The notes under the pieces: model-generated
Told to the model about the DNA's origin: nothing
Databases searched by the model: none
Seen by the model: only the letters and a program-made list of their open reading frames with translations
Shown here: piece after piece, positions 14,585-53,981 of the stretch
Numbering within the stretch: position 1 is the first letter of the stretch
How the letters are laid out: every line of letters begins with the position of its first letter
Made by a program: the position numbers and the translations under genes
Source of the DNA: Clostridia bacterium
GTDB lineage: Bacteria; Bacillota; Clostridia; CAKSNL01; HGM11501
Direction: 5' to 3'
DNA length: 64,000 nucleotides
Assembly (NCBI GenBank): GCA_017411325.1
Contig: JAFQQJ010000013.1
Location: 15,295 to 79,294 of the forward strand

Positions 14585-14717
14585 TTGTAAGGCGGCTGTA
14601 AACTTATGTTTACGGCTGTCTTTTATTTTGCACTTGCAATTCTTTACAAAATCTGTAATAATAAATCCGGATGCCGGACAGAATAATACAGCCTTAATAA
14701 AAATAAGGAGGTTTATT

Positions 14718-15548
14718 ATGGATTTTTTATCTGAATTCAGAGAAAGGCTTGTAAATGATGAGAAGGCAAAACTTACTGTGGAAAAATATGTAAGAGACTG
14801 CAGGGCGTTTTTAGCATGGATTTCGGAAAGCGGGAGAACGCTGGATAAAGAGGCGGTGCTTTGCTATAAGGAGCTTATTTCAAAGAAACACAAAACCGCC
14901 GGAGCGAATTCCATACTCTCATCTCTGAATGCATATTTTTCATATATAGGGAGAGATGAGCTTAAGGTAAAAATATTAAAGAGACAAATGACTAACTTCA
15001 GAAACGAAGAGAAAGAACTTACGAGAGACGAGTATGCAAGGCTGCTTAATGCCGCAAAGGAGCGTAAAAACAGAAAGCTTTATTATATTATGATGACTGT
15101 GTGCCGCACAGGGATAAGAATTTCTGAGCTTTCTTATATTACGGTGGAAGCGGCAAGAAAAAAGGAGGCGGTTATAGGAAATAAGGGAAAGATAAGAATT
15201 ATCCTGCTTCCTGAAAAGCTTTGCAGAGAGCTTCTTTGTTATGCTTCTGAAGAAAAAATAAAAAGCGGCCCCCTGTTCGTAACAAAAAACGGGAATCCGC
15301 TTGACCGTTCAAATATATGGAAAATGATGAAATCTCTTTGCGAAAGTGCGAATGTGGAAAAGGAAAAGGTTTTTCCGCATAATTTAAGGCATCTTTTTGC
15401 GGTAACCTTTTACAGTGTTCATAAAGATATTGTGCATCTGGCAGATATTTTAGGACATTCTACGGTTTCCACCACAAGAATTTATACACTGGAAAGCAGC
15501 CGGGCACATAGAAAACAGATGGAACAGCTATCAGGTCTTTTGCTTTAA
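14718..15548 (+). CDS. tyrosine site-specific recombinase (phage-integrase/Xer superfamily)
   Basis: ATG at 14718 behind RBS AAGGAGG; the ORF-track start 14628 is upstream read-in. Catalytic pattern RTGIRISEL, HNLRHLFA, LGHSTVSTTRIYT. Ends 10 bp before the left inverted repeat. Confidence 0.9.
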   Translation: MDFLSEFRERLVNDEKAKLTVEKYVRDCRAFLAWISESGRTLDKEAVLCYKELISKKHKTAGANSILSSLNAYFSYIGRDELKVKILKRQMTNFRNEEKELTRDEYARLLNAAKERKNRKLYYIMMTVCRTGIRISELSYITVEAARKKEAVIGNKGKIRIILLPEKLCRELLCYASEEKIKSGPLFVTKNGNPLDRSNIWKMMKSLCESANVEKEKVFPHNLRHLFAVTFYSVHKDIVHLADILGHSTVSTTRIYTLESSRAHRKQMEQLSGLLL

Positions 15549-44468: not shown

Positions 44469-46913
44469 ATGAAAAAAATATTATCTTTAATTATCGCAAT
44501 ATTAACTCTTTTCTCCCTGTGCCTCAGCATATCGGCGGAAAACACCATTACGCCCGATGGCTCCTGGAAGATAAAGGTGTCAAGTCAGCTTGGCACATCG
44601 GGAAATAACCTTTTTGACGGAAATACGGGTACAAACTGGCACTCAGCATATACCGTTGAAAACGGAAATATCGCAACTTCCGACAGTGCACCTTTCATAA
44701 TCAGTGTTGAATTCGGAAAGGAAATGGAAGTGTCGGGCTTTATCTACACTCCCAGAACCAATGACAGAACCGGCGCAATAAAGACCTTTAACGTATATGC
44801 AACAACCGGCGACGGTTATAAAAAGATTTACGAGGGCGAGTTTTACTACGAAGACGGGCTTTCGGGCTTAGTTCCTCAGACTGCAAGCTGGGGCAACGTT
44901 AAAATGAACGGCATAAAAATTGAAATAACAGAAGGTATCGGCGGTTTTGGCGCAGGCTCTGAAATTACATTCATCGAAGGCTCAAAGGGCACAGCCATAA
45001 AGGATGGTGAAGCCTTTAAGGGAGAAGAAGAGGAGACAGAGGAAGCAGAGGATACATCCGCGCTAGGAACAAAGCTTCAAAAGACGGACGGTTGGATAAT
45101 CACCGCATCCTCACAGCAGAACGATACAGGCTATTCTGTTTTAAGTGCCTTTGACGGAAACGAAAAGACCATCTGGCACACTGCATATAAGGCAGAAGAC
45201 GGGGTTGTGGTAAGCCACGATGAATGCCCCCACATAATCACCGTAACCTTCCCCGAAAAGACAAAGGTATCGGGCTGGCGTTATGTCCCGAGAAGCGACA
45301 ATGCTTCGGGAACGGTGCTTGAATACAACATTTATGCATCAGCCGACGGCACATCTTTTGAGAAAATTTACCAAGGCAGCTTTTCTTACATCGCAGGGGA
45401 TGCCGCACTCTATAAACCCTCCGGTGCAACCTGGGGCGATAAGGAAGCAAAGGCGATAAAAATTGAGATAACAAAGTCATTAGGCGGCTTTGGCACAGCC
45501 AAGGAAATTGAATTTTATACCGGCGGGAATGCGGCAGCGGAAGAAAAAGAAGAAAGCAAGGTGCAGGATAACAAGGCAACAAATTCCAAAGGCTGGAAGA
45601 TATCAGTAAATTCCGAAATGTGGAGCTCGGGCGCAAAGCTTATTGACGGAGACAGAAAAACAAACTGGCATTCTTACTATAAGGCAGAAGGCTCTGCCAT
45701 AGTGGATCAGGATGTGCCGCCCTACGAAATTGAAGTGATTCTTCCCGCCGTTACGGAAATTTCAGGCGTTACCTTGGTTCCGAGAACGGAGCTTACGGGA
45801 TTGTTCCTTGAGGTTGACCTTTATGTTTCAGATTCGGATGAGGGAGAATATTTCCTCATCAAAGAAGACATGGCTTTCGAAAACAGAATATATGACAGAG
45901 AAATTCCCTTAACCGCAAATATCGGCGTAAAGAAAATTAAAATTGTCGCAACCTCAACAGTTGGTGGCTTTGGTACACTTTCTGAAATTGAGCTTATGGA
46001 AAAGGATTCTGCAAAGGAGTCTGTAAGCTTTTCAGAATATGCGGCAAACGAAGAAGCCAACAGAATGTACAAGGTTGACACCGCTGATGCAGAGGTGATT
46101 TACGAAGGCGAAAACTGGTTTTCCCACACTCCCGACCATGCGATAGACGGAGCATCCTCCACCTTCTGGCAGACGGAAGAGCTTCCCAAAGGCTTTGCGG
46201 CGCTGATTGATATCGACCTTCAGAAAACCTACAGAATAAAGGAAATCGACTATACACCAAGACAGTCTGAAGACCTTCACGGTCACTGGCTGGGCTTTGG
46301 AATTTACACAAGTGAAGACGGGGTAAACTGGACACACGTCAAGGATGTAAGCTTTGAAAAGGACCTTTCCGTTAAGAAAATTGTGTTTGACGAGGAAATA
46401 GAAGCAAGATATTTTGAGTTTGAAATTTATGAGTATTTCGCGTCCCGTGTTTCTGCGGCGGAAATCACCTTCCTTCAGACAAAGGAAGGAAAGGAAGCTT
46501 CCCTTGCCGCCAACACGAAAAAATACACCCTTAAGATAGGCTCAAAGGAAATTGCCTATGAAAAGGGAGCGGACAAGGGTTCAAAGGAAATTGATGTTGC
46601 CCCCTTTATCACCAACGGCTCCACAATGATTCCTTTAAGAGGATTAATTGAAGAAATGGGCGGAAAAATCACCTGGGACGGTGAAACGCAGACAATCGGT
46701 GTTGATAACGGAAAGTATGAAATCACACTTCAGATATGTAATCACCTTGTATATGTTAAAGACCCCGTATACGGAAACATCCGCTATACACTTCTTAACT
46801 ACCCGATTATTTCCGAAAGCCGCACCTTTATCCCGGTAAGATTCGTATCAGAACAGCTCGGATACAGCGTTTCCTGGGACGGAACGACAGGCACGGTTAC
46901 AATAAGCAAATAA
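44469..46913 (+). CDS. secreted protein B2: four F5/8-type-C-like repeats + copper-amine-oxidase-like C-domain (paralog of B1)
   Basis: 814 aa. Repeats ...DGN..T.WH(S/T)AY......P..I.V.F......SG..Y.PR.....G.....N.YA...G..... The C-terminus DVAPFITNGSTMIPLRGLIEEMG...FIPVRFVSEQLGYSVSWDG. Confidence 0.8.
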   Translation: MKKILSLIIAILTLFSLCLSISAENTITPDGSWKIKVSSQLGTSGNNLFDGNTGTNWHSAYTVENGNIATSDSAPFIISVEFGKEMEVSGFIYTPRTNDRTGAIKTFNVYATTGDGYKKIYEGEFYYEDGLSGLVPQTASWGNVKMNGIKIEITEGIGGFGAGSEITFIEGSKGTAIKDGEAFKGEEEETEEAEDTSALGTKLQKTDGWIITASSQQNDTGYSVLSAFDGNEKTIWHTAYKAEDGVVVSHDECPHIITVTFPEKTKVSGWRYVPRSDNASGTVLEYNIYASADGTSFEKIYQGSFSYIAGDAALYKPSGATWGDKEAKAIKIEITKSLGGFGTAKEIEFYTGGNAAAEEKEESKVQDNKATNSKGWKISVNSEMWSSGAKLIDGDRKTNWHSYYKAEGSAIVDQDVPPYEIEVILPAVTEISGVTLVPRTELTGLFLEVDLYVSDSDEGEYFLIKEDMAFENRIYDREIPLTANIGVKKIKIVATSTVGGFGTLSEIELMEKDSAKESVSFSEYAANEEANRMYKVDTADAEVIYEGENWFSHTPDHAIDGASSTFWQTEELPKGFAALIDIDLQKTYRIKEIDYTPRQSEDLHGHWLGFGIYTSEDGVNWTHVKDVSFEKDLSVKKIVFDEEIEARYFEFEIYEYFASRVSAAEITFLQTKEGKEASLAANTKKYTLKIGSKEIAYEKGADKGSKEIDVAPFITNGSTMIPLRGLIEEMGGKITWDGETQTIGVDNGKYEITLQICNHLVYVKDPVYGNIRYTLLNYPIISESRTFIPVRFVSEQLGYSVSWDGTTGTVTISK

Positions 46914-46915
46914 AT

Positions 46916-46942
46916 AAAAAGCGGAGAAATCTCCGCTTTTTA
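46916..46942 (+). terminator. intrinsic terminator
   Basis: GCGGAG-AAAT-CTCCGC followed by TTTTT. Confidence 0.8.
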
Positions 46943-46963
46943 TTTGTTTGAAGGCGCTTTTGA

Positions 46964-46992
46964 TTGACTTTAGGTTCTTGGTGTAATATAAT
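46964..46992 (+). promoter_or_regulatory. sigmaA-type promoter at the head of the cassette array
   Basis: TTGACT (46964-46969), 17-bp spacer, TATAAT (46987-46992). Confidence 0.6.
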
Positions 46993-47059
46993 AAAAGAGA
47001 TTAGATGCGTATGTGTATTATACAGTCTTTATAAAGTTTGATATACAAGGGACAAAAAA

Positions 47060-47201
47060 GCCTTCCCCTTGAGGGGAAGGTGGGTGTAGGCAAAATCAGG
47101 CGGATTTTGCTGAAACTCGGATGAGGTGGAAATGAATAACGATTGCTTTGCAATCTACACCTCATCAGTCACTTCGTGACAGCTTCCCCTCAAGGGGAAG
47201 C
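47060..47201. repeat. palindromic intergenic repeat, family 1 (well-preserved copy)
   Basis: Terminal hairpins GCCTTCCCCTTGAGGGGAAGGTGGG (47060-47084) and GCTTCCCCTCAAGGGGAAGC (47182-47201). Internal pair CGGATGAGGTG (47118-47128) / CACCTCATC (47158-47166). Two small inner hairpins (GCAAAATC/GATTTTGC and GATTGC/GCAATC). Confidence 0.7.
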
Positions 47202-47221
47202 CTTTGAAAGGAAGTGCAAAT

Positions 47222-47707
47222 TTGAAGAGAAAAATAATTATCCTTTTGTGTGTAATGATTGGAATTGTTATGCTTGTTTCGTTAATAGACGAAATTAGGT
47301 ATCCAATTTCCCTTAAAATTAAATCAAATGATGTGGCAACTGCGAAAATAATATTTTATGGTGACGGAATAGACAAAGAGATAACCGAACAAAAAGATGT
47401 GAAAAAATTAGTTAGAGCATTAAATAAGCTTCGCTTTAAAGAAAGCGAAGATATGAGCCATTTGTCTCCACGTTCTGGCATTAGAATTGTAGAATTGTAT
47501 AACGAAAAAGGTGAGTGTACAGAATGTGTACAATTTTATGATTGGGCATACAGGGGTGGCGAGTATAAAGGCGAAGAAAGAAAAGATGGAGATTATTTAT
47601 CTGTAAAAAAAGGGTTGCGATTGGGTAATTTTTATATTTTATGCGACAAGTTGTGTGATGATCCCTTTGATATGGGTATATACAAAATATTTTATTACTT
47701 GCAATAA
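47222..47707 (+). CDS. cassette ORF 1: small membrane-anchored hypothetical protein
   Basis: TTG 47222 sits 7 nt after AAAGGAAG and gives MKRKIIILLCVMIGIVMLVSL... (signal-anchor). The ORF track starts it at TTG 47204. No family recognised. AT-rich. Confidence 0.55.
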   Translation: MKRKIIILLCVMIGIVMLVSLIDEIRYPISLKIKSNDVATAKIIFYGDGIDKEITEQKDVKKLVRALNKLRFKESEDMSHLSPRSGIRIVELYNEKGECTECVQFYDWAYRGGEYKGEERKDGDYLSVKKGLRLGNFYILCDKLCDDPFDMGIYKIFYYLQ

Positions 47708-47815
47708 TTTTTTTGTTTTAACCAAACACGAACAACCATTAAAAACCAGTTGCATCTAAAACTTATGCCTTGCAATTACTAAAAAATCTTGTCGAAATAA
47801 GAGGAGTAAAAAGAT
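47708..47815 (+). repeat. cassette junction J1 (motifs A, B, C)
   Basis: A: TTTTAACCAAACACGAAC 47716-47733. B: TTGCATCTAAAACTTATGCCTTGCAAT 47750-47776. C: TGTCGAA 47790-47796. Then RBS GAGGAG. Confidence 0.7.
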
Positions 47816-48295
47816 ATGTGGAAAAATTGTATTGAAGATGCACAAGGGTACATAACTTTACATGATTGCGTTGTCAATAGAGCAGAAGCTTTTGACGATG
47901 TATTGTCTTTAACTTTTGATGATGGTTTTTGGATGTTGGCAGATACAAAATATAATTCTTGCGGAGAAACAGTTAGAACAGATAAATCAAAAATAAATTT
48001 TACTGAATTTGATGAACAGCTATCCGTGTTCTATTTATTCAAAAGACACTATATATTTGGTAAACGTTTATGTACGACAAGAAAAAAAGTAGAATTGAAA
48101 GAAGTATATAAAAAAATAAATAAAGGCGAGTGGGAAATAGAGTTTAATGAGAAATATAATGGGGTTCATCAAGTTTTATTTTTTGGCGGAGTAACAACAA
48201 AGAAGAAAATTTGGGCATATGAATTTCAAATGGTTATTGATTGCGATAAAATCAAGTATTATTGGAATAATATTCGCCCGGATAGAAAATGGTGA
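47816..48295 (+). CDS. cassette ORF 2: hypothetical cytoplasmic protein (159 aa)
   Basis: ATG behind GAGGAG. No family recognised. AT-rich. Confidence 0.6.
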   Translation: MWKNCIEDAQGYITLHDCVVNRAEAFDDVLSLTFDDGFWMLADTKYNSCGETVRTDKSKINFTEFDEQLSVFYLFKRHYIFGKRLCTTRKKVELKEVYKKINKGEWEIEFNEKYNGVHQVLFFGGVTTKKKIWAYEFQMVIDCDKIKYYWNNIRPDRKW

Positions 48296-48403
48296 ATTTT
48301 TAGATCTAACCTTATATGAACTTTCACTAAATAATCTTGGCATCCAGATTATACAGTCTTTATATAAAAAATGTCGAATATTGTTGAAAAAGAGGAATTG
48401 GAT
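48296..48403 (+). repeat. cassette junction J2 (degenerate motifs A and B, motif C)
   Basis: A with a 5-nt insertion: TTTTTAGATCTAACCTTATATGAAC 48297-48321. Degenerate B: TTGGCATCCAGATTATACAG 48337-48356. C: TGTCGAA 48372-48378 and TGTTGAA 48382-48388. The 17-mer ATTATACAGTCTTTATA (48348-48364) is also at 47017-47033. Confidence 0.55.
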
Positions 48404-49081
48404 ATGAGTATAATGTATCCCAGAATACTATTATCTGCCAACACGAATAAGGAATTTTACATAGACGCTGTTGAAAAATGCGGTGGCATTGCCGTTGCAC
48501 AATACTGTCCTGAGTTTTCTTCGGAATATGACGGACTTCTTCTGTGTGGCGGAAACGATATCAATCCCAAGTATTATAACGAGAATATAAATGGTTCTGT
48601 TAATGTTGATGATTTGCGGGATGCAGCAGAATTTGAACTGTTCAGAAAATTCGTTGAAGCAAAAAAGCCGATATTTGGCGTGTGCAGAGGTTGTCAACTT
48701 ATAAATGTTGCCTTGGGCGGTAGTTTGCATCAGGATATTCCAAATGCTGATGAACACCGTTTTTCACTTGAACACTATCTGGTGCATGATATAAGAGCGA
48801 AGGAGGGCAGCTTCCTTTCAGAAATCTATGGTACTGAATTTTCTGTAAACAGTCATCATCACCAGGCGATAAAAGACCTCGGAGAAGGTGTTGAAATTGT
48901 CGCAACCGCTTTTGACGGAATTACTGTAGAGGCGATAAAGCATAGAGAATTACCTATTTATGCATTGCAATGGCATCCTGAAAAGATGTGTTTTAGCGAA
49001 AAAAGAGACGATGCGGTTGATGGAGCAAGGATTTTTGAATTTTTTATTGATTTGTGTAAAAAACTTTCTGAAAACGGGTGA
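48404..49081 (+). CDS. cassette ORF 3: class-I glutamine amidotransferase-like / peptidase C26 (gamma-glutamyl hydrolase family)
   Basis: Motifs GVCRGCQLINVALGGSLHQDI, HHHQAI, ALQWHPE. ATG 48404 behind AAAGAGGAA. The ORF-track start 48371 lies inside junction motif C. Confidence 0.8.
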   Translation: MSIMYPRILLSANTNKEFYIDAVEKCGGIAVAQYCPEFSSEYDGLLLCGGNDINPKYYNENINGSVNVDDLRDAAEFELFRKFVEAKKPIFGVCRGCQLINVALGGSLHQDIPNADEHRFSLEHYLVHDIRAKEGSFLSEIYGTEFSVNSHHHQAIKDLGEGVEIVATAFDGITVEAIKHRELPIYALQWHPEKMCFSEKRDDAVDGARIFEFFIDLCKKLSENG

Positions 49082-49370
49082 TAATTTTCTGTTTTAACCT
49101 GATACGAACTATTGCGTTGCATAGCAGCGCAGCGATATAAATTCCTAACGGAATTTACGATATATCCTTGCGGATGCGATATGTCCCTTTGGGACGAGAA
49201 TAAGGAATTTATATTATATCGCAACGGAGCAAAGCGGAGTTATATCGCATTTAAGTATGACGAAAATATATCGCACGAACGAAGTGAGTATATCGCTATA
49301 AGGGTTTGCATCTAAACCTTATGCCTCGCAATATGGATATGTCGAATGTTGTCGAAAAGTAATTTAAAGG
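49082..49370 (+). repeat. cassette junction J3 (motif A, inserted CGATAT-rich element, motifs B and C)
   Basis: A: TTTTAACCTGATACGAAC 49092-49109. Element: 49112-49305. B: TTGCATCTAAACCTTATGCCTCGCAAT 49306-49332. C: TGTCGAA 49340-49346 and 49350-49356. Confidence 0.7.
49112..49305. mobile_element. CGATAT-rich palindromic MITE-like element, copy A
   Basis: Starts TTGCGTTGCATAGCAGCGCAGCGATATAAATTCC and ends TATATCGCTATAAGGGT. Built of alternating GCGATAT / ATATCGC units. Near-identical to 50401-50610. Confidence 0.55.
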
Positions 49371-49652
49371 GTGGTAGTGTTGGTACAAACATTTCATTTT
49401 TTATTTTCAGTTTGGGAAAACAAGGAGTTAAAGAAAGAAATTTTTGACGCTTTAGAGTGTGACGATAAAAAACGAATAATAATTAGAAAGTATATTTTAA
49501 CTTTTGAACCACAACAAAGAATTGTGCTCATAGAATATGACGGAGAAAATCCAAAGTTTTTGGATGCAAAAATTTCATTTGATGCTTTAATAAATTTGCT
49601 CAATAAAAATTTTGATGATTTAACAGAAGGGTCAATCACATATTTATATTGA
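49371..49652 (+). CDS. cassette ORF 4: small hypothetical protein (about 90 aa)
   Basis: Only GTG/TTG starts are available (49371/49377/49380) and the RBS is weak. Kept because it occupies a junction-bounded slot on the same strand. Confidence 0.4.
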   Translation: MVVLVQTFHFLFSVWENKELKKEIFDALECDDKKRIIIRKYILTFEPQQRIVLIEYDGENPKFLDAKISFDALINLLNKNFDDLTEGSITYLY

Positions 49653-49766
49653 AATGTTCTTTAGTCTTAACTTAACACGAACTTGACATCAAAAAAGGTT
49701 TGCATCTAAACCTTATGCCTCGCAATACAAAGATGTCGAAAGGTGTCGAAAGGAGAAATTTATGAT
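49653..49766 (+). repeat. cassette junction J4 (motifs A, B, C)
   Basis: A: TCTTAACTTAACACGAAC 49665-49682. B: TTGCATCTAAACCTTATGCCTCGCAAT 49700-49726. C: TGTCGAA 49734-49740 and 49744-49750. RBS AGGAG. Confidence 0.7.
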
Positions 49767-50321
49767 ATGAGTGTTTTAACATCTATAGTAATGTTTATTA
49801 TTGTTATAACATTAAGTTTTGTTGTTTTAAGAAGTTTACATAAAAAATCACATGACATAAATATAAAAAGTGGAGTAATGAGTGGATTAACAACTGGAAT
49901 AATTCATATTATTTTTTCTTGTGTGGTTTGTGCATTGAGCGAAGGAGAAGGATTTATTACATATTGGGAAACGCATGAAGTTATAAATGGAATCTCGTTT
50001 AATACTATTAAAATTGTAGGAGTATGTTTAGCATCACTTGTACCAATATTATTATGTAGAGGAAAAGATTTTAAAGGATATTTGAAGTACATAATTTCAT
50101 CTTCTTTGGTCTTTGTTGCGGTATGTGTATTTGAGTGGATTAGCATATTTATTGTATTTTACATAAGCCAAATAGCAAATGTAGATATCATATTTCCGTT
50201 GAATACCTATGATTCACTTTTTTTCGCTTTTATGTATTTTCCTATTGGTGGTTTTTTAGGAACTTTGATTTCGATAATTGCAAATGCTATTTTAAGTATA
50301 TTGAAGAAGAAAGTGTATTGA
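49767..50321 (+). CDS. cassette ORF 5: polytopic membrane protein (about 5 TM), unknown function
   Basis: ATG 49767 (MSVLTSIVMFIIVITLSFVVL...). The ORF-track GTG 49743 lies inside motif C. Confidence 0.6.
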   Translation: MSVLTSIVMFIIVITLSFVVLRSLHKKSHDINIKSGVMSGLTTGIIHIIFSCVVCALSEGEGFITYWETHEVINGISFNTIKIVGVCLASLVPILLCRGKDFKGYLKYIISSSLVFVAVCVFEWISIFIVFYISQIANVDIIFPLNTYDSLFFAFMYFPIGGFLGTLISIIANAILSILKKKVY

Positions 50322-50637
50322 GAAAGTCTATGATTTTTAATCCTTACTTGCTATGAATTAGTATCAAAAAGAATTGCATCTAAACCTTATGCATCGCAAT
50401 TGCGTTGCATAGCAACGCGGCGATATAAATTCCTAACGGAATTTACGATATATCCTTGCGGATGCGATATACCTAAAGGTGCGATATGTCCCTTTGGGAC
50501 GAGATTAAGGAATTTATATTATATCGCAACGGAGCAAAGCGGAGTTATATCGCATTTGAGTGTGACGAAAATATATCGCACGAACGAAGTGAGTATATCG
50601 CTATAAGGGCTTGCATCTAAACCTTATGTGTAGCAAT
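50322..50637 (+). repeat. cassette junction J5 / array end (degenerate A, B, inserted element, second B)
   Basis: A-like: TTTTAATCCTTACTTGC 50335-50351. B: TTGCATCTAAACCTTATGCATCGCAAT 50374-50400. Element: 50401-50610. B': TTGCATCTAAACCTTATGTGTAGCAAT 50611-50637. No motif C or ORF follows. Confidence 0.65.
50401..50610. mobile_element. CGATAT-rich palindromic MITE-like element, copy B
   Basis: Same ends as copy A. Differs by a few substitutions and one extra 17-nt internal unit (ACCTAAAGGTGCGATAT). Confidence 0.55.
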
Positions 50638-50647
50638 TATTAAAAAT

Positions 50648-50674
50648 ACCGGTATCCGGATTATCCGGTTTTTA
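50648..50674 (+). terminator. intrinsic terminator closing the cassette array
   Basis: CCGGA-TTA-TCCGG (alternative outer pairing ACCGG/CCGGT) followed by TTTTT. Confidence 0.65.
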
Positions 50675-50731
50675 TATGCAGTTCAACGCAGTATGGCAAG
50701 ATAAATATCGCTGCGGTAAAGGAGTTATTAT

Positions 50732-51745
50732 ATGAATCTTACATTAAATCAAATTGAAAAAATAACAAATGGTGCTGAGAGAGTTAAAGAAAATGACAAT
50801 CTTATAAGATTTTACAGATTTACCGAAGAACAGGAAGAGTTATACAAAAGAAGAAATGCTGATTTTTATAAGAAAACCTTTTCGACAGCAGGCATCAGGC
50901 TGGCATTTAAGACAGACAGTGAAAAGCTTTATTTAAGCGGCAGCATTTTTTCCGGCTCTTCCCGCAGTTACTATTCCGTGGATGTTTTTGTGAATAAAAA
51001 AATGATAGGGTGCATTGATAACTTTAATGAATCCGAAATGAAGGGCAACTACAGCGCAAAGGCTTGCCCGGAGGATGACTTCTCAAAAGAATTTATGCTT
51101 GGTAAAGGCGAAAAAGAAGTTGAGGTTTACTTTCCCTGGTCTGTCGGCATAGGATTGAAGAATATCGCTATTGATGATAATTCTTTTATAGAGCCGGTTA
51201 AGCGATCCAAAAAGCTCCTTGCTTTCGGGGACTCCATTACGCAGGGGTATGATGCTTTAAGGCCGTCAAGAAGATATGTTTCGCTTCTTTCGGAGAAATT
51301 AGGCGCAGAAGAAATCAATAAGGCGATAGGCGGAGAGGTGTTTTTCCCCGGTCTTGCAGAAAGCGAAGAAGCATATATACCCGATTATATAATCGTTGCT
51401 TACGGAACAAATGACTGGAGCAGGCTGGGAAAAGACGAATTTGATAAAAACTGCAAAGCCTTTTATGAGGCACTAAGTAAAAAATATTTATCGTCAAAAA
51501 TTTTTGCTATTACTCCCATCTGGAGAAAGGATTTGCACGAGGAAAGCAAGGTGGGAGCTTTCAGCTATATAGAAGAATACATAAAAGAGGTTACATCAAA
51601 GCTTGAAAATGTCACATTCATCTCAGGATACGATTTTGTTCCCGAGGATGAAGCTTTCTATGGAGACTTAAGACTTCATCCCAACGATATGGGCTTTTCT
51701 AAGCATTATGAAAACTTATATAGCAGGATAAAAAAATACTTATAA
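50732..51745 (+). CDS. SGNH/GDSL-family hydrolase (esterase)
   Basis: 337 aa. Block I LLAFGDSITQGY, block III AYGTNDW, block V-like LHPNDMG. Confidence 0.8.
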   Translation: MNLTLNQIEKITNGAERVKENDNLIRFYRFTEEQEELYKRRNADFYKKTFSTAGIRLAFKTDSEKLYLSGSIFSGSSRSYYSVDVFVNKKMIGCIDNFNESEMKGNYSAKACPEDDFSKEFMLGKGEKEVEVYFPWSVGIGLKNIAIDDNSFIEPVKRSKKLLAFGDSITQGYDALRPSRRYVSLLSEKLGAEEINKAIGGEVFFPGLAESEEAYIPDYIIVAYGTNDWSRLGKDEFDKNCKAFYEALSKKYLSSKIFAITPIWRKDLHEESKVGAFSYIEEYIKEVTSKLENVTFISGYDFVPEDEAFYGDLRLHPNDMGFSKHYENLYSRIKKYL

Positions 51746-51836
51746 TTTTAATACATCTCGGTGCTGTTTCACGATCCTGATATTTTAAAGGATATCGGAT
51801 TTAAGATATTGTACGAAGATTAAAGGAGGAATTCTT

Positions 51837-53981
51837 ATGGATATAAAATTGAGAGAAAGAATTGACAGTATAATTTCCAAAATGACGCTTAAGGAAAAAA
51901 TCGGTCAGCTTAATCAGGAGGCGGTAAGCCCGAAAGACCTTGAAAAAATAAAAGAGCGTGTAAGAAACGGGGAGCTTGGCTCAATCATTCTGGCAAGCAC
52001 CGCAACAGCGGGAAACGATGCACAGGAAAAGGTTTATTATGAAGTAATTGATGAGATACAGAAAACAGCGGTGGAAGAAAGCAGAATGGGAATTCCGCTT
52101 CTTTTCGGAAGGGATATTATCCACGGCTATACAACGGTTTTCCCCGTGCCCTTGGCACTTTCTGCAATGTTTAATCCCGACCTTGTTAAAACGGCGTACA
52201 GCCATATTGCAAAGGAAACAAAAAACAACGGCGTTAACTGGACCTTTGCGCCCATGATTGATATATCGAGAGATTCAAGATGGGGAAGGTGTATTGAAGG
52301 CATCGGCGAGGATCCTTATGTGGGCGGTGTTATGGCAGAAGCAATCGTAAAGGGCTTTCAGGGCGAAGAGCTTTCACCTTCATCCGTTGCGGCAACGGCA
52401 AAGCACTTCATAGGCTACGGAGCCGCTGAAGGCGGAAGAGACTATGACAAGACGGAAATTTCCGATTATACCTTAAGAAACTTCTACCTTCCTCCATTTA
52501 AAAAGGCGATAGATGCAGGCTGTGCAACGGTAATGAATTCCTTTAACGAAATTAACGGAACGTCAACTGCGGCAAGCAAAAAGCTTTTAAGAAAAATGCT
52601 TAAGGGCGAGCTTTCCTTTGAAGGCTTTGTTATAAGCGACTGGGGCTCTGTCGAAAAGCTTGTATTTTTCGGTCAGGCATCAGATAAGAAAGAGGCGGCA
52701 AAAATTGCAATAAATGCCGGAATGGATATGGATATGGTGTGCCGTGCCTTCTTCGATAACCTCGAAGCGCTTGTTTCGGAGGGCAAGGTTTCGGAAGCAA
52801 CCATTGACGAAGCCGTATCAAGAATTCTTGGCGTAAAGCTTAAGCTTGGTCTTTTCGAAAATCCCTATGTGGTAAGGCAGGATATTAATATAGAGGAAAC
52901 AGAAGATTGTGCGGAAAAATGTGCAGACGAAGCAATGGTGCTTCTTAAAAACAACGAAAACATCCTTCCTCTTAAAAAGGAAGCGGCCGTTTTATTTGCA
53001 GGCCCTATGCTTTCTGAAAAGCATTCTCTTATGGGCTCCTGGAGTGCAGACGGTGATGTTACAAGGGTGAAAAGCATTAAAGAGGTGCTGAAAGAGAGCA
53101 AAGTAAATGCATTTTTCGCAGAGAGCGACTATCTCTGGGACGGAATTTTACCCTTTGTGAGAATGGCGGATGCCGTGGTATTAACCTTAGGTGAAAGCAG
53201 AAAGGTAACGGGCGAGGCTAACAGCTTAACTAAAGTGGAGCTTCCGGCAGAGCAGATGGAGTTTATAAAGAGAGTGCACGCTCTGGGCGTAAAAATAATC
53301 GGTGTTATGGCATTCGGCCGTCCCATCGCACTTTTCGATGCGGAGCCTTATCTTGATGCAATTCTTTATATATGGCACTCGGGAACAAGAAGTGCACAAA
53401 GCGCAGTTTCCGCTCTTTACGGTGACGTTAATCCTTCGGGACGACTGCCTATGAGCTTCCCCAGATATACAGGGCAGATTCCAATATACTATAACCGTGA
53501 AAAGGGCGCGATACCTCTTAATTCCTACTATGGCGAAACCAATAAAAGAGTGCATTCCTATCACGATTCCCTTGCAACGCCCATGTATCCCTTTGGCTAC
53601 GGACTTTCGTATACTGAATTTTCCTACGGAGAAATTACCTCGGATAAAACAAAAATCAGCTTAAAGGACTTAGAAGCGGGGGACGGTTTCTCCTTAAGCA
53701 TCACCGTTAAGAATACGGGAGAGCGTGAAGGCGCTGAGGTAACTCAGGTCTACATAACCGACAAGGTATCATCTATGGTACGCCCGATTAAGGAGCTTAA
53801 GGCTTTCTCAAAGAATGTCTTAAAGCCGGGTGAAGAGGTAAAGCTTAACTTCTTTATTGACTTTGAAAAGCTCGGCTATTACAACGATGAAGGCGAATTT
53901 ACGGTTGAAGAAGGCGAATTTGACATCTGGATAGGCAAAGACGCCTATGTAACAGATAAGATAACAGTTACGGTAGAATAA
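51837..53981 (+). CDS. glycoside hydrolase family 3 beta-glucosidase-like enzyme
   Basis: 714 aa. Motifs KHFIGYGAAEGGRDY and GFVISDWGS (nucleophile Asp). C-terminal FnIII-like domain. Confidence 0.9.
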   Translation: MDIKLRERIDSIISKMTLKEKIGQLNQEAVSPKDLEKIKERVRNGELGSIILASTATAGNDAQEKVYYEVIDEIQKTAVEESRMGIPLLFGRDIIHGYTTVFPVPLALSAMFNPDLVKTAYSHIAKETKNNGVNWTFAPMIDISRDSRWGRCIEGIGEDPYVGGVMAEAIVKGFQGEELSPSSVAATAKHFIGYGAAEGGRDYDKTEISDYTLRNFYLPPFKKAIDAGCATVMNSFNEINGTSTAASKKLLRKMLKGELSFEGFVISDWGSVEKLVFFGQASDKKEAAKIAINAGMDMDMVCRAFFDNLEALVSEGKVSEATIDEAVSRILGVKLKLGLFENPYVVRQDINIEETEDCAEKCADEAMVLLKNNENILPLKKEAAVLFAGPMLSEKHSLMGSWSADGDVTRVKSIKEVLKESKVNAFFAESDYLWDGILPFVRMADAVVLTLGESRKVTGEANSLTKVELPAEQMEFIKRVHALGVKIIGVMAFGRPIALFDAEPYLDAILYIWHSGTRSAQSAVSALYGDVNPSGRLPMSFPRYTGQIPIYYNREKGAIPLNSYYGETNKRVHSYHDSLATPMYPFGYGLSYTEFSYGEITSDKTKISLKDLEAGDGFSLSITVKNTGEREGAEVTQVYITDKVSSMVRPIKELKAFSKNVLKPGEEVKLNFFIDFEKLGYYNDEGEFTVEEGEFDIWIGKDAYVTDKITVTVE

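Follow-up and report, generated by a model that had tools for sequence, protein, structure and literature searches.

The closest known analogue of the gene array described here is rAID-1 of the Bacteroidales; in contrast to integrons, the present array has neither attC-type sites nor a neighbouring recombinase. For one of its parts there is a well-studied counterpart: TGTCGAA is the 7-bp core of the 0A box for Spo0A of both Bacillus and C. difficile (PMC3485338), and a footprinted Spo0A site consists of two boxes 3 bp apart (PMC2731898). This kind of gene array has apparently not been described so far. We observe it in a 64-kb stretch of DNA from a Clostridia bacterium (the window). Five co-oriented, unrelated and AT-rich ORFs at 47222-50321 have between them a modular junction of about 100 bases, which comprises a 27-base boundary motif, a tandem Spo0A-type operator and a ribosome-binding site.

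Layout of the array

The array has a GC content of 27-32% against 42-47% in its flanks; an initial annotation had recognized the AT-richness and put the flanks slightly higher, at 45-50%. Its view of five unrelated units bounded by a conserved site holds: pairwise identity among the ORFs is 14-17%, and matches of an HMM of the whole junction to the 64-kb window are confined to 47705-50638 on the plus strand, with none in front of the other approximately 45 genes. The promoter-like site at the head and the terminators at both ends were recovered, the left terminator being the limit of the variable region. The array was thought to be free of internal promoters; it contains a promoter-like site on the minus strand (48377 to 48348, TCGACA-18-TATAAT, 11/12 matches), which overlaps junction 2. 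The features are as follows; A, B and D denote junction motifs described below.

46907-46950, plus strand: terminator-like site of the upstream 814-aa gene, hairpin and T-run (inverted repeat 21 nt, 95%)
46964-46992, plus strand: sigma-70-like candidate promoter, TTGACT-17-TATAAT, 11/12 matches
47017-47033, plus strand: partial D module ATTATACAGTCTTTATA, then a decayed 0A-box region; 17-mer identical to 48348-48364, full D elsewhere
47057-47205, no strand assigned: decayed, ORF-less remnant of a DUF559-endonuclease mini-element (terminal inverted repeats 26 nt, 92%)
47222-47707, plus strand: ORF1, membrane-anchored protein, no known family
47708-47815, plus strand: junction 1, with T-run and motif A 47709-47733, B 47750-47776, single 0A box 47790-47796, Shine-Dalgarno
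47816-48295, plus strand: ORF2, 159 aa, no known family
48296-48403, plus strand: junction 2, with motif A 48297-48321, D in place of B 48337-48366, tandem 0A boxes 48372-48388, Shine-Dalgarno
48404-49081, plus strand: ORF3, class-I glutamine amidotransferase / peptidase C26-like enzyme, 225 aa (Pfam PF07722, E = 1.6e-48)
49085-49110, plus strand: motif A of ORF3, 3' end ACGAACTAT
49111-49305, plus strand: CGATAT element, copy 1, direct repeats
49306-49370, plus strand: B 49306-49332, perfect tandem 0A boxes 49340-49356, ribosome-binding site of ORF4
49371-49652, plus strand: ORF4, about 90 aa, possible starts 49371, 49377 and 49380, no known family
49653-49766, plus strand: junction 4, with A 49658-49682, B 49700-49726, tandem 0A boxes 49734-49750, GGAG
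49767-50321, plus strand: ORF5, 184-aa multi-pass membrane protein, no known family
50331-50400, plus strand: junction 5, degenerate A, then B 50374-50400
50399-50610, plus strand: CGATAT element, copy 2, direct repeats, adjoining the preceding B
50611-50637, plus strand: terminal B, variant TGTGTAGCAAT
50648-50674, plus strand: array-closing terminator upstream of the SGNH hydrolase gene, hairpin and T-run at 50656-50668
50732-51745: SGNH hydrolase gene, after the closing terminator

Among the five ORFs, ORF3 alone matches a Pfam family (Peptidase_C26/GATase), and every one of its NCBIfam matches is under the cut-off. ORF1 probably starts with TTG at 47222, the longest ORF beginning at 47204; another array (L167) has a copy with 90% DNA identity in the standard A-B-C ... 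A-B setting. The ORF2 family is tiny (22 clusters among 5.8 billion proteins), and its homologues in L033 and L017, with 81% and 67% aa identity, have different neighbours. The suggestion of an immunity-gene array finds slight encouragement in related arrays, where the 74 cassette proteins include two WapI-like proteins, two Phd antitoxins and one DUF4279 protein, but none of the five ORFs here matches an immunity or defence family.

Parts of the junction

The 27-mer B (TTGCATCTAAACCTTATGCCTCGCAAT) occurs five times with 0-3 mismatches, always on the plus strand (47750, 49306, 49700, 50374 and 50611), where shuffled sequence gives no copy. An asymmetric, strictly directional sequence, it keeps about 25 positions unchanged in many species; the variable ones have no confident linkage to either flank (2 of 13 pairs vs 5 of 10). 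Motif A (CTAACTTGACACGAAC) follows stop codons in four copies, and a fifth, degenerate one at approximately 50331 is detected by the junction HMM. These motifs, the TGTCGAA boxes and the repeated 17-mer lie where they had been annotated. The supposed degenerate 27-mer at 48337-48356 proved to be something else, a distinct recurrent module D (TTGGCATCCAGATTATACAGTCTTTATATAA), which is present in many other genomes and has a hexamer geometry in common with B (TTGCAT-N17-CAATAT in B, TTGGCA-N18-TATATA in D). The terminal B lies directly upstream of the terminator, with no gene for it to serve.

Six of the nine perfect TGTCGAA copies in the whole window fall within the array. By sequence, two copies phased 10 bp apart form a perfect tandem Spo0A box adjoining the Shine-Dalgarno sequence, as at 49340 and 49734; in junction 2 the second box reads TGTTGAA. 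The tandem arrangement is kept across an alignment of 45 junctions, and junction 4 is the best full-length example (nhmmer, 96.5 bits, E = 3e-29). The position of the boxes next to the Shine-Dalgarno sequence suggests that the junction is also a shared regulatory leader, an alternative that had been raised for the whole junction and applies to its 3' part. A Spo0A gene was not found in the 64-kb window plus fragments; a related contig carries the sporulation genes Spore_YtfJ and YmdB.

Embedded elements

The long junction at 49092-49332 contains copy 1 of the CGATAT element; both copies and the DUF559 remnant had been overlooked. As an insertion, the remnant separates the ORF1 ribosome-binding site from the 0A-box region. 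In the sister strain L001, an intact 121-aa DUF559 gene is found between the same arms, and L167 carries the same insertion upstream of its ORF1 homologue. The CGATAT element (195-212 bp) is structured, with hairpins spaced by CGATAT in the first half and by ATATCG in the second, and an alignment of 21 sequences has compensatory changes in 14 of 24 predicted pairs. Its match to Rfam Gut-1 is weak (28.5 bits vs a gathering score of 50). The joint of B and copy 2 is a 24-nt palindrome, TATGCATCGCAA/TTGCGTTGCATA.

Distribution across genomes

The array family is widespread in gut Clostridia. B was found in more than 100 MAG assemblies of this group, with at least 116 stretches in genome contigs and 67 in metagenomes; one match in Nostoc is a chance hit. 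The junction has 214 matches in genome contigs and 102 in metagenomes, and no locus has matches on both strands. Arrays are AT-richer than their own flanks in 47 of 51 cases, and three others (L086, L112, L113) likewise end in B and then a terminator. Short junctions, in which A is fused straight to AATATGGATATGTCGAA, occur in at least 10 loci, and homologues of cassette genes are also found with short or decayed junctions without B. At array ends, D or B precedes ordinary genes such as tsaD, mutS2 and the SGNH gene.

Exchange between strains and species

Comparison of the orthologous locus in sister strains reveals junction-bounded gain, loss and replacement. Three alleles share the terminal B, the terminator and the SGNH gene, with flanks 95-97% identical, and differ in what precedes these: a first CGATAT element, then ORF4, ORF5, B and another CGATAT element in the window and L001, one 87-aa membrane ORF in L026, and one 295-aa ORF in L128. 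Their common right breakpoint is the left edge of the terminal B; on the left, the window equals L026 up to the ACGAACTAT of the ORF3 motif A and is unrelated beyond. A cassette in the array of another species (L022) matches the L026 ORF at 90-94% identity. In segments shared at 88% identity or more between species-level genomes, the junctions account for 2.9% of the sequence but for 44 of 78 internal ends (approximately 19-fold enrichment). Several segments have a junction at each end in both loci (99%, 96.5%, 93% and 91% identity), and 105 HSP ends lie at B positions +24 to +27. At an orthologous chromosomal site with 74% identical flanks, two species carry different cassettes. Three strain contents at one terminal B, together with units recurring across species, mean that cassette-like exchange occurs. 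The sequences compared are mostly metagenome assemblies, where repeats may give chimeric joins; against this, the final assembly k-mers exceed the identical core in length, and independent projects show the pattern again. The junction-bounded exchange predicted in the annotation is borne out, but the junction is not only a boundary, given its 3' operator and Shine-Dalgarno sequence.

As the annotation had stated, the junctions are not attC-like: they have no attC-type features and no conserved fold as RNA or ssDNA. Recombinases are not enriched within 3-10 kb of approximately 180 arrays. An Xer-like gene in the window lies 32 kb away and is without a homologue near any related array. Since no dedicated recombination machinery was found, the proposed integron logic remains an analogy.

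Possible mechanisms

We give about even chances to the explanation that the array consists of horizontally exchanged expression cassettes, whose junction is both a Spo0A-controlled leader and a recombination breakpoint. Each unit comprises, in this order, B, a spacer of about 8 nt, TGTCGAA-N3-TGTCGAA, Shine-Dalgarno, ORF, stop codon with T-run, motif A and an A-rich spacer. The tandem 0A boxes would put every cassette under the sporulation and stationary-phase regulator Spo0A~P; because the predicted boxes lie downstream of any possible promoter, the effect would most likely be repression or a roadblock. The promoter at 46964-46992, weak promoters of the B/D type, or both may drive transcription. 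Cassettes would be gained, lost and replaced at linear, unstructured junctions; as these are near-identical, directly oriented and clade-wide, incoming DNA could replace resident cassettes by recombination there. An attC-type fold or a cis-encoded recombinase has no part in this; the host general recombination machinery would be the default enzyme, and a dedicated trans-acting recombinase for B the main alternative. Homologous recombination on 27-100 bp is inefficient, which favours a dedicated enzyme. Further points count against the cassette-and-leader explanation: B holds far more conserved information than a promoter or operator needs, the terminal B with its terminator serves no gene, and the window plus fragments yielded no Spo0A gene.

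A true integron analogue is possible but rather doubtful. Here, a dedicated site-specific recombinase, with its gene elsewhere in the genome, would use B as attachment site and motif A as a weaker secondary site; circles with one B would excise and integrate at A or B, and the Spo0A boxes and Shine-Dalgarno sequence would merely travel along. The asymmetry, direction and invariance of B resemble a recombinase or nuclease site rather than an operator, and the extra B at array ends fits as well. Either B (CGCAAT) or motif A (CGAACTAT) stands before the start of cassettes and of the CGATAT element, short junctions are the expected product of A x B recombination, and breakpoints are sharply concentrated at B. 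This clustering is also expected, however, simply from B being the sole invariant stretch, and cassette-gene homologues do occur without B. The consensus contains a 7-6-7 core-like palindrome (AAGGTTT-GCATCT-AAACCTT), but conservation of its left arm is poor, and the two arms do not covary; the lack of recombinases near the arrays also speaks against this explanation. Improbable, in our judgement, is a pure regulon, in which accessory genes merely have a conserved promoter, operator and leader as their junction (Spo0A boxes together with a factor that binds B, or a signal for anti-termination or pausing) and strain differences are ordinary indels and horizontal transfer that have nothing to do with the junction. 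The perfect tandem 0A boxes fused to the Shine-Dalgarno sequence, the hexamer geometry of B and D, and their place upstream of tsaD, mutS2 and the SGNH gene would suit it. It is at odds with the enrichment of segment ends in junctions and the exact junction-to-junction units, the single right breakpoint of three alleles, the B copies directly before terminators, and the absence of the junction from other window genes. In addition, B has no canonical -10 hexamer and no copy passes the promoter scan, so that its expression role is putative in the cassette-and-leader explanation, too.

Very unlikely is a MITE-like family with the CGATAT element as complete form and B as its right end, solitary B copies between ORFs being decayed or one-ended insertions that prefer an intergenic context. 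CGATAT sub-families do keep both ends (left ATTGCGTTGCATA, right B) while the interior varies, the left end is an inverted copy of the right arm of B (10-11/13), and TA stands on either side of copy 1. This resemblance may stem from a covarying hairpin, one half of which is the left end; moreover, most B copies miss a left-end partner, inverted B pairs and a transposase are absent in approximately 1 Mb of loci, and in the L026 and L128 alleles ORF cassettes and B copies were gained together. Hardly credible is a paralogue array, in which a single gene was duplicated in tandem along with its upstream region and the copies then diverged, or an assembly artefact, as only the repeated upstream regions recall either. 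The ORFs are not recognizable as diverged paralogues, an option the annotation had mentioned, given their low identity and differing lengths and fold classes (enzyme, soluble and membrane proteins). The same array was independently assembled in L001/L119, and the motif occurs in hundreds of independent assemblies.

Anatomy of the array and its junctions

The five cassette ORFs (ORF1-ORF5, 47222-50321) lie on the same strand and show no mutual relationship; only ORF3 could be assigned to a family, Peptidase_C26/GATase. The AT-richness claimed in the initial annotation is evident from a GC content of 27-32% inside the array versus 42-47% outside. The 27-mer, motif B, occurs in five copies, on the plus strand only and all inside 47750-50637, and shuffled sequence contains none. 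Motif A does follow four of the stop codons directly, and the TGTCGAA boxes, which form motif C when arranged in tandem, lie where they had been placed; the array holds six of the nine perfect TGTCGAA copies of the 64-kb window. What had been taken for a degenerate 27-mer at 48337 is a real site, but the label is wrong: it represents a distinct recurring variant, D (TTGGCATCCAGATTATACAGTCTTTATATAA), which replaces B. Two further features had been overlooked. The stretches 49111-49305 and 50399-50610 are two copies of one structured repeat, in the following called the CGATAT element, and 47057-47205 is the remnant of a gutted DUF559-endonuclease mini-element, of which a near-identical strain carries an intact version.

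A consensus of the junction, i.e., the stretch between neighbouring cassette ORFs, was derived from an alignment of 45 junctions from many genomes. The stop codon and a T-run are followed by A (CTAACTTGACACGAAC), by a second ACTTGACAT with an A-run (AAAAAGGTT), and by B (TGCATCTAAACCTTATGNNTCGCAAT). Next come TATGGATA and motif C (TGTCGAA-N3-TGTCGAA), which runs into AGGAG, about 7 nt and the start codon. B is nearly invariant across the aligned junctions while the flanks of the same sequences are 60-70% conserved; this near-invariance is in part due to B itself having been the search query. In at least 10 loci we observe a short junction, in which A is joined straight to AATATGGATATGTCGAA and B is missing. 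A third boundary variant, B' (TTGCATCTAAAYYGTMTRTCCCKTATAA), found in the comparison loci L009, L015, L040 and L083, stands midway between B and D; its end is formed by a TATAA-like hexamer that follows TTGCAT at a distance of 17 nt. Judged by sequence, B, B' and D seem to make up a single family of modules shaped like promoters. A further repeat, ending in ...GGTGATGGTTCTTATTATTCACTGTTC, lies directly 5' of motif A in L129 (9782-9956) and in L003, L077, L081, L112 and L118. The L129 copy is part of a stretch with hairpin-like sequence, whose RAGATH-22 score of 22 bits versus 120 is meaningless.

A junction HMM trained on the junctions of other genomes gives seven matches in the window, all on the plus strand and all in 47705-50638. 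The junction is thus not a general promoter of ordinary genes in this window, an alternative that the initial annotation had left open.

The junction is conserved in sequence and not in structure, unlike attC sites, which are imperfect palindromes of variable sequence with a conserved ssDNA fold. RNAalifold predicts -0.35 kcal/mol for the 45 aligned junctions, with three invariant and no covarying pairs, and ssDNA folds of three junctions of the window, calculated for both strands, are no better than those of shuffled sequences (z-scores -0.7 to +1.2). This is an explicit negative for attC-like sites as well as for a riboswitch-like leader, in good agreement with the earlier statement that the junctions are not attC sites, and on these grounds a riboswitch, a leader RNA and an attC fold were all rejected. 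B itself is asymmetric; a 7-6-7 palindrome of the consensus has a variable left arm, and covariation between its arms is unsupported in the 45-junction alignment.

Spo0A boxes and promoter-like signals

TGTCGAA is the 7-bp core of the 0A box, which is recognised by Spo0A of B. subtilis and C. difficile alike (PMC3485338), and footprinting has shown a pair of 0A boxes with 3-bp spacing to be a Spo0A~P site of 25-30 bp (PMC2731898). Motif C consists of exactly two direct TGTCGAA boxes 3 bp apart and hence has the sequence of a 0A operator.

0A boxes and the antisense promoter-like site in the array
47790: single 0A box
48348-48377, minus strand: antisense promoter-like site, TCGACA-18-TATAAT with TG before it, 11/12 matches
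48372-48388: tandem 0A boxes, one mismatch
49340-49356: perfect tandem 0A boxes
49734-49750: perfect tandem 0A boxes

The second box of motif C leads into the Shine-Dalgarno sequence. As the distance from the boxes to the start codon is too short to hold a promoter, bound Spo0A~P would act on transcription coming from upstream, and the predicted effect is repression or a roadblock, similar to that at the promoter of abrB and at the early promoters of phi29. The head-to-tail arrangement with 3-bp spacing is that of Spo0A-repressed promoters such as abrB of B. subtilis and A2c of the phages phi29 and Nf. In promoters of the abrB/A2c type, the 0A boxes lie in the transcription start region or shortly after it; here, in contrast, the putative operator is repeated before every ORF of the array and fused to the Shine-Dalgarno sequence, with no canonical promoter identified. 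Phage phi29 provides a case of mobile DNA whose 0A boxes couple its expression to the sporulation state of the host (PMC2731898). The spo0A gene was found neither in the 64-kb window nor in the comparison loci; a related contig carries sporulation genes. A derivation of the junction from an abrB promoter was discarded, as the sole AbrB-like gene in the loci (L080) has neither B nor C upstream.

The cassettes of an integron are promoterless and are expressed from a single Pc promoter. In the window, the putative head promoter of the initial annotation scores 11/12, and the promoter scan returns no plus-strand site of at least 10/12 inside the array. The geometry of B (TTGCAT-N17-CAATAT) and D (TTGGCA-N18-TATATA) is reminiscent of a promoter. 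No copy of B passes the scan as a sigma-70 promoter, a canonical -10 being absent, and the segment from B to C lacks a TAnnnT hexamer. Compared by eye with consensus sequences, B shows no apparent fit to a sigma-54, ECF, sigma-H or sigma-E/F/G/K site, nor to RAT, a Cheo (LexA) box or dif.

On its opposite strand, D contains a near-consensus extended -10 promoter, TTCGACA-N17/18-TGTATAAT, whose -35 element is the first 0A box read in reverse. The core ATTATACAG is kept in the D modules of other genomes, and an antisense or divergent transcript under the control of Spo0A is therefore possible.

Distribution and cassette content

An exact scan for TGCATCTAAANCTTATGNNNNGCAA covered one genome per species, the JGI metagenomes, IMG/VR, and plasmid and phage databases. 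It returned more than 116 stretches from the genomes and 67 from the JGI metagenomes. Among the genome matches listed, nearly all are MAGs of gut or rumen Clostridia (labelled Congzhengia, Ructibacterium, Aphodoplasma, Ornithomonoglobus, Oscillospiraceae and Acutalibacteraceae), and the single outlier, in Nostoc, is a chance match within a gene. IMG/VR contains just two matches, each at a contig end, and the plasmid and phage databases none, so that the junction is not phage- or plasmid-borne in those collections. A literature search found the 16-nt core of B in none of the papers covered, and one for integron-like arrays in Clostridia gave nothing relevant.

The junction HMM detects 214 junctions in the genome loci and 102 in the metagenome loci, with one to eight per locus. 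No locus has matches on both strands; sites within a locus are always in direct orientation. The arrays are short, with several per genome, and in 47 of 51 of them the AT content between junctions exceeds that of the flanks.

A great diversity of ORFs is found downstream of B; their median length is 159 aa, and roughly one in four has an N-terminal hydrophobic segment. The few Pfam families behind B include DUF559, WapI-like immunity, Phd antitoxin, DUF4279, 23S-rRNA-IVP, Macro and small hydrolases. Among 74 cassette proteins of related arrays, two are WapI-like and one belongs to DUF4279, and the majority has no family. ORF1-ORF5 gave no match against defence and immunity libraries. The families most often adjoining arrays are SGNH, MBL, GDPD and HAD hydrolases. 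An SGNH orthologue in L126 has its own B and 0A box upstream; a metagenome scan with the SGNH protein as query returned no match.

Apparent exchange of units between strains and species

As far as sequence comparison can show, units are exchanged between arrays. In line with the cassette reading of the initial annotation, the versions of this locus in sister strains (L001, L026 and L128) differ in cassette content, with breakpoints at junctions. Three alleles were found. All have the same terminal B variant (TGTGTAGCAAT), together with the terminator and, on the right flank, the SGNH hydrolase gene, at 95-97% identity. Upstream of the terminal B, the window and L001 carry a CGATAT element, B, ORF4, ORF5, B and a second CGATAT element. 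L026 has one 87-aa membrane ORF with its own A, the left breakpoint falling exactly after ACGAACTAT of ORF3, and L128 has a 295-aa ORF whose stop codon touches the terminal B.

The same units recur in other surroundings. The ORF of L026 is 90-94% identical to a cassette in L022, an array of another species. The ORF1 cassette, together with the DUF559 remnant, is found in L167 in a canonical A-B-C ... A-B setting behind a transporter gene, and the homologues of ORF2 in L033 and L017 have neighbours that differ from those in the window. Where species-level genomes share segments of at least 88% identity, junctions hold 44 of the 78 internal end points and account for 2.9% of the sequence. Of the shared segments, five run from one junction to another in both loci and are 91-99% identical; for comparison, the housekeeping flanks of genomes sharing such segments are 66-75% identical. 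In two species with orthologous flanks (74% identity), an array lies upstream of the same HAD gene in both and the cassettes differ. Discrete cassettes found in different arrays are a hallmark of integrons and are thus seen here. Most comparators are metagenome assemblies, where any single contig may be a repeat-induced chimera; the pattern recurs across independent projects. Linkage between the variable positions of B and the upstream or downstream cassette, analysed to place the crossover, was 2/13 versus 5/10, numbers too small for this purpose.

Two single observations concern the vicinity of these sites. L128 (2175-2840, corresponding to 51745-51837 of the window) has an extra 221-aa gene of the metallo-beta-lactamase fold, with a weak match to Anti-Pycsar Apyc1, between the SGNH and GH3 genes, so the flank of the array is variable, too. 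In one metagenome contig, L122 (1-125, corresponding to 48075-48200), a different 5' sequence is joined to the last 100 nt of ORF2, which may be either a recombinant inside ORF2 or an assembly chimera.

Search for a recombinase

No recombinase or transposase is associated with the arrays. A recombinase is missing from the vicinity of the present array and of about 180 related ones. When 861 ORFs from 116 loci were clustered by BLAST, no recombinase cluster emerged, the largest family being DUF559. In Pfam scans of 148 plus 59 ORFs within 3-6 kb of junctions, the top 25 families are ordinary metabolic ones with no recombinase among them, and three further contexts of ORF2 homologues have no recombinase within 10 kb. 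The initial annotation had seen no integrase next to the array, and indeed the sole Phage_integrase ORF of the window is 32 kb away:

14628-15548: tyrosine recombinase, 306 aa, adjoining a DUF1846 gene

The protein is Xer-like and stays under the NCBIfam cut-offs for XerC, XerD, XerA and the integron integrase (best score 134 versus 220 bits). A homologue is absent from 883 kb around related arrays, and no link between this gene and the array was found. An adjacent intI gene with attI, as expected of an integron, is thus absent.

Comparison with known systems

The closest described system is rAID-1, the recombinase-associated acquired interbacterial defence clusters of Bacteroidales (bioRxiv 10.1101/471110, Ross et al.), which are defined by a conserved XerD-family recombinase heading the array and whose content is dominated by orphan immunity genes. 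Both systems are found in gut bacteria and line up numerous small accessory genes, unrelated but in the same orientation, with signs of horizontal acquisition. They also share a GC content skewed against the genome, repetitive intergenic sequences "reminiscent of integrons", and some immunity-type genes, here WapI-like and DUF4279 in related arrays. The head recombinase, however, is missing here and near the related arrays. Moreover, our arrays occur in Clostridia instead of Bacteroidales, have a different junction sequence with Spo0A boxes, are short, with several in each genome, and most of their cassette proteins lack an immunity annotation.

Integrons and CALINs, i.e., clusters of attC sites without an integrase, resemble the array in several respects: discrete, unrelated and co-oriented ORFs are tightly packed between conserved boundary sites behind an outward, here putative, head promoter, the same cassette occurs in different arrays and species, and the boundary sites number one more than the cassettes. 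The content is likewise AT-rich, mostly of unknown function, and includes toxin-antitoxin modules. Neither of the defining features, IntI or attC, is present, however, and the junction carries the Shine-Dalgarno sequence and putative operator upstream of each ORF, whereas the attC of integrons lies 3' of the ORF. Integrons are not known from Firmicutes.

The Xer-dependent pdif modules of Acinetobacter are small units with toxin-antitoxin and accessory genes among their content; they are flanked by conserved sites of about 28 bp and moved by a recombinase whose gene lies elsewhere in the cell. Their sites are plasmid-borne XerC-6-XerD imperfect palindromes, with two 11-bp inverted arms around a 6-bp centre, in alternating orientation. 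B, in contrast, is asymmetric, always in direct orientation, chromosomal, and without resemblance to dif, and hence is not a pdif site.

Interpretation of the junction

The reading we favour, giving it about an even chance, is that the array consists of exchangeable expression cassettes and that the junction serves both as a Spo0A-controlled leader and as an exchange site, with no machinery encoded in cis. The enzymatic part could be homology-driven replacement, the junction being a portable piece of homology. No novel component is required for this, but with 27-100 bp of homology such replacement is inefficient, and it leaves unexplained why B is conserved far beyond the needs of a regulatory site. 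A dedicated trans-acting recombinase for B would account for this conservation, for the extra terminal B, for the short junctions, which would result from A x B recombination, and for A and B being equivalent entry points. It has no candidate protein, and we rate it as rather doubtful. Equally tentative is the proposal that the 27-mer is the attachment site of a new trans-acting cassette-capture system of Clostridia, which supplies each gene with a Spo0A-controlled translation-initiation module. Such a system would be a functional counterpart of the integron with a linear, sequence-defined 27-bp site in place of the folded attC, and its recombinase or nuclease gene would be located away from the arrays.

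A purely regulatory junction, to which the indels are unrelated, conflicts with the clustering of breakpoints in junctions, and we consider it unlikely. It is less probable still that B originated as the end of a MITE, as inverted pairs of B are never found. The diverged paralogues envisaged in the initial annotation, or an artefact, deserve hardly any weight, for the proteins are unrelated and the array was assembled independently elsewhere.

Junction-delimited arrays of accessory genes are a kind of system already known; a B-specific recombination system, if demonstrated, would make the finding categorically new. If exchangeable cassettes are the correct reading, many uncultured gut and rumen Clostridia would hold several small hot spots at which standard units are swapped across species. 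The swapped genes would encode membrane and secreted proteins, toxin-antitoxin and immunity-like proteins, and small hydrolases, and every unit would bring its own ribosome-binding site and Spo0A operator, tying the expression of acquired genes to the sporulation/stationary-phase switch. Current tools would miss this route of gene flow in Firmicutes, because IntegronFinder needs attC and IntI and island finders need integrases. From a practical point of view, the 27-mer would be a simple tag for mining the flexible gene pool of these organisms, and a defined 27-bp site would provide a bait for a new recombinase or DNA-binding protein.

Elements embedded in the array

Both elements inserted in the array look, by their sequence, like small mobile elements that favour this junction. 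Copies of the DUF559 (Vsr-like endonuclease) mini-element lie at the following places:

47057-47205 of the window
L001, 1-440
L167, 600-740, minus strand

Both of its 26-nt inverted ends are hairpins in their own right, and the mini-element occurs either with an intact gene of 121 aa or as MITE-like remnants without an ORF. The insertion is framed by the second 0A box on one side and by GAAAGG on the other, the latter representing either the ribosome-binding site or the left edge of B; the putative target is CGAAA|GAAAGG. The right end of the mini-element lies directly 5' of 21 of 150 B copies. No protein cluster near the arrays is larger than that of DUF559, with 11 genes in 10 loci. The element looks like an undescribed small mobile element or a free-standing homing endonuclease targeting junctions.

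In addition to the two copies in the window, about 20 CGATAT elements were found in the loci. The element begins with a conserved hairpin, ATTGCGTTGC-ATA-GCAACGCA, and ends with B, and these ends are constant while the interior varies. The interior is a series of hairpins, which are separated by the linker CGATAT in the left half and by ATATCG in the right half. Compensatory changes support 14 of 24 predicted pairs in an alignment of 21 sequences, and sub-families replace the linker in both halves together (CGATAT to CTAAAT to TGAATT). The left end is an inverted copy of the right arm of B, matching in 10-11 of 13 positions, so that B followed by the element forms a 24-nt palindrome; covariation does not support pairing between the left end and B. 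Of the terminal inverted repeats and target-site duplication that mark a MITE or transposon, the CGATAT element shows 13-nt inverted ends and, in copy 1 only, TA flanks, and the DUF559 mini-element shows its 26-nt inverted ends; the ORF cassettes lack such features, B never occurring in inverted pairs.

Rfam gave no match at the gathering threshold for the whole window. For the array region at E-values up to 10, only sub-threshold matches were obtained, the sole suggestive one being Gut-1 (RF01706) on the CGATAT element at 49130-49207, whose 28.5 bits versus the gathering cut-off of 50 place it outside the family. Both motifs come from a gut setting and consist of short hairpins separated by a repeated 6-7-nt linker, which is GUGAAAU in Gut-1 and CGAUAU, CUAAAU or UGAAUU in the CGATAT element. 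Unlike Gut-1, the latter is about three times longer, has a second half with the reverse-complement linker that pairs with the first, and is bounded by the conserved left hairpin and by B on the right. A true Gut-1 RNA (74 bits) was found between two tRNA genes in L089 (6957-7032), a MAG which also contains 27-mer arrays. The Gut-1 motif had, to our knowledge, been known from metagenomes only, and is now placed in a Clostridia genome.
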